Positions 33,786 through 35,947 of a DNA stretch of 35,947 bases are shown piece after piece. Below the pieces are notes generated by a model, which was given only the letters and a program-made list of their open reading frames with translations, made no database searches and had not been told where the DNA came from. Position numbers and translations under genes: made by a program. How positions within the stretch are numbered: the stretch's first letter is position 1; every line of letters starts with the position of its first letter. Location of the stretch: the IMG/VR virus record IMGVR_UViG_2897375277_000005. One strand, 5' to 3'. Origin of the DNA: a virus. Taxonomy: Duplodnaviria; Heunggongvirae; Uroviricota; Caudoviricetes.

Positions 33786-34046
33786 ATGTTCCGTTGTCCG
33801 CTTTGTGGCGCATCTGCCCGTATCCGCACCAGTCGTCCGGAAAATGATTCAAACACCGTGCGGCAAAAGTATTACCAGTGTAACAACCTGGAATGCGGCG
33901 TATGCTTCTCAACACTGGAAGCCTTCCATAAATTCACATCGAAACACGCCTCCGGCGTTCACTCATCAGAAGGTATCCCGTGGCATGAGCTGCCAGCTTC
34001 ACACAGGGGAAACAATCAGATGAGTTTGCCTTTACCTCAGAATTAA
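33786..34046 (+). CDS. ogr: late-gene transcriptional activator, Ogr/Delta zinc-finger family
   Basis: MFRCPLCGASARIRTSR...YYQCNNLECGVCFSTLE matches remembered P2 Ogr (MFHCPLCQHAAHARTSR...YHQCQNVNCSATFITYE). Confidence 0.85.
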   Translation: MFRCPLCGASARIRTSRPENDSNTVRQKYYQCNNLECGVCFSTLEAFHKFTSKHASGVHSSEGIPWHELPASHRGNNQMSLPLPQN

Positions 34047-34236
34047 CAGGCAGAATTGCCGGAGTAACAAAAAAGCGATAGATTACGCGCGGGTGCCTTT
34101 CGGCTGATGGTCGGAGGGAATACCCGAAGGCCAGATGTGGAAAGGCCCCGGAAAACACTTTTGTTTAACCGAGGCCCTAACCGTCTACCCTAAGCAAGTG
34201 AAAGGTTAGCGCCTCTCCGGAAAAGGAGCAAGTGCT

Positions 34237-34377
34237 ATGTCGCAAAAATCGCTTACAGCCATCACGTTCTGCGTGACGGTAATCCTCATCATCTGGATAT
34301 TGCATGGTTCGCTGTGCGAAATACGGATGAGCTTCTGGGGCGCGGAGTTTGCGGCGTTCTTACAGTGTAAGCAGTAA
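34237..34377 (+). CDS. hok: Hok/Gef-family type I toxin (46 aa)
   Basis: Translation MSQKSLTAITFCVTVILIIWILHGSLCEIRMSFWGAEFAAFLQCKQ: N-terminal TM helix, then SLCEIR and EFAAF motifs as in Hok (SLCEIR...EVAAF). AAGGAG RBS 8 nt upstream. Below the ORF-track size cut-off. Confidence 0.65.
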   Translation: MSQKSLTAITFCVTVILIIWILHGSLCEIRMSFWGAEFAAFLQCKQ

Positions 34378-34386
34378 GGAAACCGC

Positions 34387-34408
34387 GACGGGGGAGCAAT
34401 CCCCCGTC
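34387..34408 (+). other. GC hairpin 10 nt downstream of the hok-like ORF (3' stability or terminator element)
   Basis: GACGGGGG-AGCAAT-CCCCCGTC. Confidence 0.35.
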
Positions 34409-34512
34409 AATCGGTTGCCTGGGTATGGTCGAAGTGGCACCCAAATTTAAATTGAGGCCCACCAGTAAGAGTGGTGGGCTTAACGCTTATTTAAATTTGA
34501 AAGGAACTCTTT

Positions 34513-34809
34513 ATGAGTGAAATGGTATTTTGTCGCGGATGCGGCAAGGAAATACATAAAGATGCCACATCCTGCCCCAATTGTGGAGCACCTCAAAGAA
34601 CAGCAAGTTCAAAAAGCAGAATGACAGCCGCACTACTGGCTTTCTTTTTAGGTGGTCTTGGTGCACACAAATTTTATTTAGGTAAAGTGGGGCAAGGATT
34701 CCTTTACCTTATTTTTTGCTGGACATTCATTCCGGCAATCGTGGCATTTATTGAGTTTTTTATCTATCTATGCACCTCTGATGAAGACTTTGCCCGCAAA
34801 TATGGCTAA
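34513..34809 (+). CDS. zinc-ribbon plus TM2-domain membrane protein
   Basis: N-terminal CxxC...CxxC (CRGCGKEIHKDATSCPNCG) followed by two hydrophobic helices typical of TM2-domain proteins (LAFFLGGLGAHKFYLGK...). Confidence 0.6.
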   Translation: MSEMVFCRGCGKEIHKDATSCPNCGAPQRTASSKSRMTAALLAFFLGGLGAHKFYLGKVGQGFLYLIFCWTFIPAIVAFIEFFIYLCTSDEDFARKYG

Positions 34810-34835
34810 TGCCTAGTGGGCGAATCAGAATGACA

Positions 34836-34869
34836 AACCCGCAGCGTAAAAACTGCGGGTTTTCTTTTT
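34836..34869 (+). terminator. rho-independent terminator
   Basis: AACCCGCAG-CGTAAAAA-CTGCGGGTT followed by TTTTCTTTTT. Confidence 0.65.
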
Positions 34870-34998
34870 GGTGTCCTCACAAATGAGGGCACCACCCATA
34901 AGCAATAGGCATAACAGATCGATGCAATAAATCCGATCGATAAAAACGATCGATTTGTTATCATATCGGCAGCAGTAACCACACAAGAGGTGCCGCAA

Positions 34999-35196
34999 AT
35001 GACGCAAAATGTACGATGCAAAAATTGCAACAAACTACTTGCCCGCGCCTCATTTCACTACATTGAAATAAAATGTCCGCGCTGCAAAACACTTAACCAG
35101 ATAACGAGAGCCATCGAGCACCCCACACACATGAGGAGTTATGACCGTGGGGATCGCAATCCAGCACCAACCAGCACATACACCGGAACACACTAA
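34999..35196 (+). CDS. com: Com-like zinc-finger protein (Mu Com family translational activator)
   Basis: VRCKNCNKLLARASFHYIEIKCPRCK matches Mu Com (IRCKNCNKLLFKADSFDHIEIRCPRCK); AAGAGG RBS; its 3' end overlaps the methyltransferase start. Confidence 0.65.
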   Translation: MTQNVRCKNCNKLLARASFHYIEIKCPRCKTLNQITRAIEHPTHMRSYDRGDRNPAPTSTYTGTH

Positions 35197-35947
35197 GGTT
35201 TATCAGACTGACAATGCCACGCTCTGTCGTGGGAATGCGCTGGAAATATTGCCGCTGATTGAGCCAGAAAGTATTGATGCCTTAATCACTGACCCGCCTT
35301 ACAGTTCGGGCGCGACACACAAGGCCGGACGCACCAACCAGGGCAGCCACGCAAAATATCTGAACGGCGAGAACCTTCATCGCTTTGATGGGTTTGCGGG
35401 TGAAAACATGGATGCCCGTTCGTGGGCTTACTGGACACAATTATGGATGGCACAGGCACACCGCGCAGTCAGGCCGGGCGGTTATGCCCTGGTATTTACT
35501 GACTGGCGACAACTACCAGCTTTAACCGATGCGTTTCAGGCCAGTGGCTTTACATGGCGCGGTATCATTGCGTGGAACAAGGGGAGGGGGTCACGAACAC
35601 CCCATACCGGGTATTTCCGGCATCAGTGCGAATACATTGTCTGGGGCAGCAAAGGCCATTTAGATAAATCGCCTTCGGGGCCGTTCGACGGCTGCATGAC
35701 GTTCCCGGTTATCCCGTCAAAGAAAATGCACCCGACCGGAAAACCAGAAGAACTAATGGCAGAGCTGGTCAGGACTGTGAATAGTGGCGGAACAGTCCTT
35801 GATCCTTTTATGGGGTCAGGGACAACGGGTGTGGCTGCACTGAAAGCAGGGCGAAAATTTATTGGTATAGAAACCAGTGATCATTATTTTGAGGTAGCAG
35901 CGCAGCGGCTTCGGGGGACTATTACCACAACCATTTCGGCTACATAA
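35141..35947 (+). CDS. DNA amino-methyltransferase (N6-adenine or N4-cytosine, beta-class motif order)
   Basis: DPPY motif (LITDPPYSS) followed C-terminally by the SAM-binding FxGxG motif (FMGSGTTGVAA); GAGGAG RBS. Specificity cannot be told from sequence alone. Confidence 0.8.
   Translation: MTVGIAIQHQPAHTPEHTKVYQTDNATLCRGNALEILPLIEPESIDALITDPPYSSGATHKAGRTNQGSHAKYLNGENLHRFDGFAGENMDARSWAYWTQLWMAQAHRAVRPGGYALVFTDWRQLPALTDAFQASGFTWRGIIAWNKGRGSRTPHTGYFRHQCEYIVWGSKGHLDKSPSGPFDGCMTFPVIPSKKMHPTGKPEELMAELVRTVNSGGTVLDPFMGSGTTGVAALKAGRKFIGIETSDHYFEVAAQRLRGTITTTISAT

Follow-up and report, generated by a model that had tools for sequence, protein, structure and literature searches.

The window analyzed here, a 35,947-nt stretch of viral DNA (IMG/VR record IMGVR_UViG_2897375277_000005), very probably carries a self-contained hok/sok-type type I toxin-antitoxin cassette (34056-34443) as cargo of a P88-like prophage. 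The locus is an ordinary, already annotated member of a known toxin-antitoxin family of this type, and the absence of mok is its one apparent unusual point. The elements defined for R1 (tac, fbi, ucb and dcb; PMC9841398) all appear recognizable in it.

The Hok peptide

A sequence-only reading of this region had described a 46-aa ORF with an SLCEIR signature behind a strong ribosome-binding site, and both features were confirmed. ORF calling and profile matches place the hok CDS at 34237-34377 on the plus strand (46 aa plus stop), and its product, MSQKSLTAITFCVTVILIIWILHGSLCEIRMSFWGAEFAAFLQCKQ, contains SLCEIR. The Shine-Dalgarno sequence, AAGGAG, can be read directly at 34223-34228 (+), 8 nt 5' of the ATG. 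The spacing to ogr was also as described, with 190 nt separating the stop at 34046 of the ogr homologue (33786-34046, Pfam Ogr_Delta) from the hok ATG, and the GC hairpin noted past the hok stop lies at 34387-34408, beginning 9 nt after the stop codon. The Hok/Gef assignment itself was upheld by profile HMMs and by a conserved, covarying hok mRNA architecture.

Pfam HOK_GEF (PF01848) matched residues 7-44 with 29.1 bits, passing its gathering score of 22 (E 7.7e-7), and phrog_251 (PHROG 251, "MokW-like host killing") matched the 46-aa peptide over its full length (E 8.7e-23). These E-values exclude a chance-ORF origin of the match. The NCBIfam scores were below the curated cut-offs, at 32.3 bits against 89 for the HokA equivalog NF007290, by which a HokA identity was ruled out, and 23.3 bits against 73 for the Hok subfamily NF007279. 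Because of these scores, and of an identity to HokC of only ~27%, the peptide is best described as a Hok/Gef member of a distinct 46-aa subfamily.

Residues found in more than 80% of Hok peptides are M1, C, T, L-C-E and E (preprint 10.1101/2025.08.07.668861), and all of them occur here, as M1, C12, T14, L26, C27, E28 and E37, spaced like logo positions 16, 18, 30-32 and 41 of that preprint. Residues 8-22 form a hydrophobic stretch, consistent with a single hydrophobic helix. The peptide is a 100% match to RefSeq WP_000078918.1 ("Hok/Gef family protein") and is annotated in phages P88, Chuche, 500465-2 and P884B11. WP_000078918.1 is thus the identical protein and PHROG 251 the same peptide family, but existing annotations cover the peptide only; the RNA elements, Sok and the lack of mok go unmentioned in those of phages, RefSeq and PHROG. 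"MokW-like host killing" and similar database labels are names only.

The hok ORF is under purifying selection. Against 15 homologues dN/dS was 0.04-0.25, with a median of 0.21 over 116 pairs and values of 0.12-0.25 in copies diverged to dS ~1, figures to be read with the caveat that RNA-structure constraints lower dS in places. Although frameshifted or truncated copies occur in some genomes, most protein clusters by far have an intact 46-aa Hok. Purifying selection and the dominance of intact ORFs argue that the peptide is expressed and selected.

The hok mRNA and its predicted antisense RNA

We placed the predicted hok promoter at 34056-34084 (+), with a -35 box TTGCCG (34056-61), a 17-nt spacer, a -10 box TAGATT (34079-84) and a start near G34091. 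A simple promoter scan of 33950-34900 called zero sigma-70 sites, both the hok and the Sok promoter falling below its threshold, and for this reason the two were placed by homology and conservation only. The hok -10 box reads TAGATT, TAGAAT, TAAATT or TAGAGT in the homologues, its distance to GGGTGCC is fixed in all of them, and similarity to the P88 and Stx-phage copies starts exactly at the -35 box.

By folding and alignment, the body of the full-length hok mRNA runs from the 5' end of tac to the 3' element fbi (34091-34443, +, ~353 nt). Rfam RF01794 matched 34091-34250 (+) across the whole model (positions 1-157) with an E-value of 2.2e-10 and 51.9 bits, below the gathering score of 59, and the cassette leader would be a significant but divergent relative of that family. 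The consensus of RF01794 ("sok antitoxin") starts with GGGUGCUUGA (tac) and ends at the hok AUG, and is therefore the sense hok leader; the name is misleading as to strand. Rfam matches to MicC and BSnc120 (34752-34884) were discarded, being far below their gathering scores and reflecting only the terminator hairpin.

In the minimum free energy fold of 34091-34445 (-154 kcal/mol, z -5.45) the first 15 nt pair with 34427-43, forming 15 bp. Comparative analysis was carried out on a 17-sequence alignment (A3) using RNAalifold and an independent pair count. The RNAalifold consensus comprised 78 pairs. By the independent count 97.9% of cells at the consensus pairs were paired, compared with 35-42% when the partners were slid by 1-3 columns, and 16 pairs were changed on both sides (66 cells), a number reached by 0/500 shuffles.

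The tac element (34091-34105, +) consists of a GGGUGCC core, invariant in the 17 sequences, plus an extension. Its partner fbi (34427-34443, +) reads GGUCGAAG, U, GGCACCC, and the homology of all copies ends there. The 7-bp core helix (GGGUGCC/GGCACCC) shows no variation except one G-U, and between the two extensions 4/4 pairs (tac columns 10-13) are compensatory. Closure of the full-length mRNA by tac and fbi, a defining feature of R1, is accordingly reproduced in the computed structures.

A ucb-like box, GAAAGGCCCC (34140-34149, +), was identified in the fold of the 3'-truncated RNA; its predicted partner is GAGGCC as long as the RNA is closed, and tac once the 3' end has been truncated. The dcb/anti-SD region, GGUUAGCGCCUCUCC (34204-34217, +), defined by folds and covariation, would likewise have two partners, the hok SD/start region in the closed form (helix 7) and GAGGCCCUAACC (34171-82) in the open form. 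CUCC of this region (34214-17) pairs with the GGAG of the hok Shine-Dalgarno sequence in the full-length fold, whereas GGAG is predicted to be mostly unpaired after truncation. The truncated RNA (34091-34410) is predicted to refold by pairing tac with GAAAGGCCCC (34140-49), and GAGGCCCUAACC (34171-82) with GGUUAGCGCCUC of the dcb/anti-SD region (34204-15).

These alternative helices were 93.5% paired jointly, with compensatory changes. In the tac/ucb helix pairing reached 93.5%, and 2 pairs differ on both sides; the open-form helix between the GAGG region and dcb was 93.6% paired. Columns 10 and 11 of tac covary with both fbi and ucb, and columns 56 (ucb side), 87 (GAGG) and 127 (dcb side) covary three ways in two Salmonella copies. 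Such shared-column covariation would be the signature expected of mutually exclusive structures, and the covariation of the tac/ucb and GAGG/dcb helices is consistent with a switch that depends on 3' processing. The alternative ucb and dcb pairings that also define R1 were found here as computational predictions.

A hairpin of the mRNA at 34144-34176 (+), whose complement is the Sok terminator stem, was identified by covariation (helices 5 and 6), including compensatory exchanges of GC to AU and CG to UA. This Sok-target hairpin contains GAGG (34171-74), which comparison with the hokB and hokC leaders showed to correspond to the Shine-Dalgarno sequence of mok in those loci and in R1. Further along, a downstream box, GCGGAGUUUGCGGCG (34342-34356, +; coding for AEFAA), pairs with the start-codon region at 34238-34252. 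In the 17 sequences this helix (helix 8) has 13 pairs, 0 of them broken, of which 8 are invariant and 5 changed on one side; no compensatory changes were seen there, and its support is conservation only. Truncation is not predicted to free the start-codon region, which keeps its pairing with 34342-56.

Past the stop codon lies a GC-rich stem-loop (34381-34416, +) with a 9-bp inner stem (34387-95/34400-08) and an outer AACCG/CGGUU, in which 5/9 pairs (helix 15) show compensatory changes. It corresponds to the protective last stem-loop of the truncated R1 hok mRNA (PMC9841398), would halt 3' trimming, and probably marks where the processed, active hok mRNA ends. An extra long-range helix in the minimum free energy fold, between the Sok-tail target (34187-97) and 34415-24, was 89.5% paired with 2 compensatory pairs, and was set aside because this comparative support was only moderate.

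The sequence-only reading had expected a Hok-type locus to include an antisense Sok RNA and an overlapping mok frame; a Sok-like unit is indeed predicted, at the position homologous to sokB and sokC, but the mok frame is absent. The predicted Sok-like RNA (34135-34195, minus strand, ~57-61 nt) was placed by position and by similarity to K-12 sokB and sokC, which are annotated at 57 and 59 nt on the strand opposite hok, with starts 48-49 nt upstream of its ATG. It would consist of a 5' tail GCUUAGGGUAGACGGUUA, a hairpin GGCCUCGG...CCGGGGCC and a UUUCC tail; in the predicted fold (-22 to -23 kcal/mol, z -2.5 to -2.9) a terminator hairpin follows the 5' tail. Across the 17-sequence alignment this hairpin is maintained, with covarying pairs. 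The design so predicted is also that of R1 and the K-12 loci, where a cis-antisense RNA of ~57-60 nt has a 5' tail ahead of a GGCCUCGG...CCGGGGCC terminator hairpin.

The predicted Sok promoter (34203-34231, -) has a -35 box TTGCTC (34231-26), 17 nt, a -10 box TAACCT (34208-03), 7 nt and a start at G34195. Its layout is that of sokB, in which TTGCCG, 17 nt, TAAGAT, 7 nt and G are followed by the same hairpin. As a consensus match it is weak (3/6 + 3/6). The -10 box is unchanged in 16/17 homologues (TATCCT in one), but its bases are also under RNA-structure constraint and the two effects are inseparable; the -35 box reads TTGCTC, TTGACT, TTGCCT or TTTACT. The leader between dcb and the hok Shine-Dalgarno sequence is ~8 nt shorter here than in the K-12 loci, and as a result the Sok -35 box lies between the Shine-Dalgarno sequence and the ATG rather than just upstream of the former.

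The absence of mok

A search of the window for a mok ORF in three frames, allowing ATG, GTG and TTG starts, found none. All three frames are closed 5' of hok, by TAA 34191-93, TGA 34199-201 and TAG 34207-09, these stops falling at -30 in frame 0, at -38 in frame 1 and at -46 in frame 2, and there is no usable start codon. The mok frames of R1 and hokB begin 58 nt 5' of hok, in the -1 frame and 7-8 nt past GAGG, and mokC is an in-frame extension of hokC; the same scan recovered mokB and mokC as positive controls. The GAGG at 34171-74 is retained in the present locus, but no start codon follows it.

Applied to 18 distinct homologues, the scan found the frames closed upstream of hok in most. A long mok-like ORF occurred in the Escherichia albertii copy (L010) alone, where an ATG at -103 relative to the hok ATG (position 1501) opens 79 codons in the R1-type frame. 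This ORF may preserve the ancestral arrangement, or the frame may be open by chance. Because the frames are closed in most homologues and only E. albertii has the long ORF, mok appears not to be a conserved part of the 46-aa Hok subfamily. Two upstream ORFs, 34107-34193 and 34135-34209, were considered as substitutes for mok and rejected, as their start, frame and end point are not conserved. Our search for literature on mok-less hok loci found no relevant report, and the preprint cataloguing Hok peptides (10.1101/2025.08.07.668861) analyzed neither mok nor Sok.

It is possible, if short of probable, that the 46-aa Hok subfamily is a mok-independent variant of hok/sok in which the counterpart of the R1 mok Shine-Dalgarno sequence now serves as an anti-anti-SD element, and Sok and the tac/fbi/ucb/dcb switch act directly on the hok ribosome-binding site without leader-peptide coupling. 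The steps we propose are modeled on the R1 paradigm (PMC9841398, PMC4147584), for whose RNA elements mutagenesis offers a precedent (PMC9841398), and on work with hokW-sokW (PMC8621323). In the closed form, pairing of the 5' tac with the 3' fbi would lock the hok Shine-Dalgarno sequence and AUG in pairs, and the full-length mRNA would be stable and inert, as in R1. Slow 3' trimming to the hairpin at 34387-34408 would remove fbi, upon which tac could re-pair with ucb (34140-49), and the released GAGGCC... segment could pair with the anti-SD region (34204-15), leaving the hok Shine-Dalgarno sequence directly exposed. A short-lived Sok of ~60 nt, transcribed leftwards from ~34195, would bind the exposed leader (34135-34195), reverse the switch and trigger RNase III decay. 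Once the supply of Sok ended, Hok would be made and the inner membrane depolarized. That supply may end on prophage loss or when another phage shuts off host transcription, and possibly on prophage induction, as reported for hokW-sokW. Because there is no mok leader frame, unlike in R1, hokB and hokC, control would act on the hok ribosome-binding site itself.

In the AapA/IsoA systems of Helicobacter pylori (PMC5416894), the toxin Shine-Dalgarno sequence is sequestered in the full-length mRNA and activated by 3' processing, an antisense RNA plus RNase III silence the toxin mRNA, and there is no leader ORF. The mechanism proposed here would be analogous, but the toxin family and RNA sequences are unrelated.

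Translation of mok is required for Hok synthesis in R1 (PMC9841398, PMC4147584), and because mok is absent here Hok might be translated poorly or not at all. The locus could then be a translationally silent relic that lost mok, whose hok mRNA is untranslatable and which persists by hitch-hiking on phages. The closure of all three frames upstream of a gene whose R1 relative has a mandatory mok (PMC9841398) fits such a history, as do the confinement of the 79-codon mok-like ORF to the E. albertii copy, which suggests loss in the others, and the frameshifted hok copies of some genomes. We nevertheless consider it unlikely, since mok-less copies that have diverged to dS ~1 still evolve under purifying selection (dN/dS 0.12-0.25), the entire switch architecture has been kept by compensatory changes, the cassette has spread to unrelated phage backbones and been duplicated in tandem, and the 46-aa ORF stays intact in the large majority of protein clusters.

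Alternatively, a short leader ORF might replace mok, its translation from ATG 34135 melting the anti-SD hairpin and coupling to hok, and Sok, whose duplex abuts that ATG, blocking this step. Such an ORF does exist; it has AAGG before its ATG and runs for 24 codons to TAG 34207-09, 27 nt before the hok ATG and within the dcb/anti-SD region, and the ribosome footprint of ATG 34135 lies partly within the predicted Sok duplex (34135/9-34195). We judge this replacement to be quite unlikely, because no Salmonella, Klebsiella or Citrobacter homologue has this ATG, and in the copies that do have it the ORF stops at -81, -60, -46, -30 or +134 relative to the hok ATG, with neither frame nor end point conserved.

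The cassette and its prophage

The conserved unit is a ~390-bp cassette extending from the hok -35 box at 34056 to the end of fbi at 34443. Its edges are sharp; homology starts at TTGCCG (34056) and stops at GGCACCC (34437-43), and the flanks are unrelated. The interval first proposed for the locus, 34047-34408, was too short on the right, where the unit reaches fbi.

The same reading had left open whether the ORF was prophage cargo or the first host gene, and the former proved correct. In Escherichia coli KOr024, which has a 100% identical copy, the prophage lies between pheL/pheA on the integrase side and raiA, and hok is followed by a TM2-domain gene, a com-like gene, a DNA methyltransferase gene and then host raiA. 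The free phage Chuche has the order ogr, hok, com, methyltransferase, integrase. Because the TM2, com-like and methyltransferase genes precede raiA, and the Chuche order agrees, the hok cassette is cargo of a P88-like (P2-like) prophage, carried between ogr and the right attachment site. That the ORF instead arose by chance, or is the host gene next to attR, is hardly conceivable, since its sole support is a position near the right end of a P2-like prophage, whereas the three further phage-type genes before raiA, the same cassette inside the complete phages P88, Chuche, 500465-2 and P884B11 and inside Stx phages, and HMM E-values that exclude chance all oppose it, and the KOr024 and Chuche gene orders refute it.

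At the other end of the window, positions 1 to ~220 correspond to the host pheL/pheA leader region (cf. locus L021, 3122-3414), as for an integrase-first prophage between pheL and raiA. The TM2 gene (34513-34809, +) encodes a 98-aa protein with a zinc ribbon plus a TM2 domain (Pfam TM2, E 5.5e-19; phrog_10292). It belongs to a ~385-bp segment (34444-34832) inserted directly after the hok fbi, which P88 and Chuche do not have, and this insertion separates fbi from the terminator used in those two phages, here at 34835-34862. The true 3' end of the hok mRNA is uncertain because of it. A GC-rich hairpin predicted by folding at 34455-34481 (+), 11 nt past fbi within the inserted segment (-18.8 kcal/mol, z -3.75) and likewise absent from P88 and Chuche, has a weak U tract and is a possible terminator in this lineage. 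Beyond lie a Com-like zinc-ribbon ORF (34990-35196, +; PF10122) and a PF01555 DNA methyltransferase ORF (35141-35947, +), which overlap by 56 nt, the latter running to the last base of the window. In Chuche this pair is found ahead of the integrase gene, and it looks like a prophage-borne cargo module for modification under com control.

The cassette is widespread. Five E. coli chromosomes carry a 100% identical copy, and matches spanning at least 80% of the query occurred in 1,693/5,426 complete E. coli genomes (~1/3). Copies of 93-97% identity occur in the P2-like phages (Peduoviridae, Xuanwuvirus) 500465-2, Chuche, P884B11, P88 and PhiR44_2 and in a Citrobacter phage, and further copies in Salmonella, E. 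albertii, Citrobacter and Klebsiella oxytoca. Salmonella P2-like prophages have ogr followed by up to three tandem hok cassettes at a spacing of 498 bp; two Salmonella enterica contigs (L015 and L016, 6-1641) hold three after ogr, with ATGs at 505, 1003 and 1501, and these have diverged from each other. Two tandem hok copies in another context were seen in L017 and L018. An alignment query for related loci gave 7 loci, three of them in implausible hosts. These three, labelled Planococcaceae (L007), Vagococcus (L008) and Xanthomonas pisi (L011), have near-identical E. coli-type hok cassettes and are most likely contaminating enterobacterial or phage contigs; L007, which contains Ns, was left out.

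Many Stx phages have a ~81% DNA-identical cassette downstream of lom. We observed it just 3' of lom in L003 and L004 (2501-2875 in each), and the carriers include Stx1 and Stx2 phages. The locus hokW-sokW of the Stx2 prophage Sp5 is likewise a prophage-borne hok/sok locus in E. coli (PMC8621323), but HokW is a different peptide of 51 aa (MKQQKAM...). The Stx-phage homologue of the present cassette, 81% identical in DNA and located beside lom, is a second hok locus, distinct from the characterized hokW.

With R1 hok/sok (parB), hokB/mokB/sokB and hokC/mokC/sokC the present locus shares a Hok/Gef peptide, the pairing of a 5' GGGUGC... tac with a 3' fbi, the alternative pairings of ucb, GAGG and dcb, and a stem-loop just past the stop codon. 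Those three loci have a mok reading frame, whereas this one does not.

Toxicity and membrane depolarization would be expected of this Hok as a member of its family and given what tested relatives do (PMC8621323; preprint 10.1101/2025.08.07.668861). One such relative, hokW-sokW, has been reported to help with lysis on prophage induction (PMC8621323), and the role of the present cassette could be the same, or prophage addiction or abortive infection. That hok is enriched in prophages and also occurs in islets has been published (preprint 10.1101/2025.08.07.668861), and a prophage carrying a hok/sok-type addiction or abortive-infection cassette is consistent with that enrichment. The sharp edges, from promoter to fbi, and the recurrence in unrelated phage backbones make this cassette a clean example of a mobile toxin-antitoxin module. 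As a by-product, the analysis provides a base-resolved map of RNA elements for a very common, experimentally unstudied Hok subfamily. Its sole non-routine aspect, which we did not find discussed in the literature, appears to be a conserved R1-type RNA switch without mok. The subfamily seems to keep the entire switch; if this is confirmed, mok-mediated coupling would be dispensable, and these loci would offer a simple natural system for asking what mok adds.
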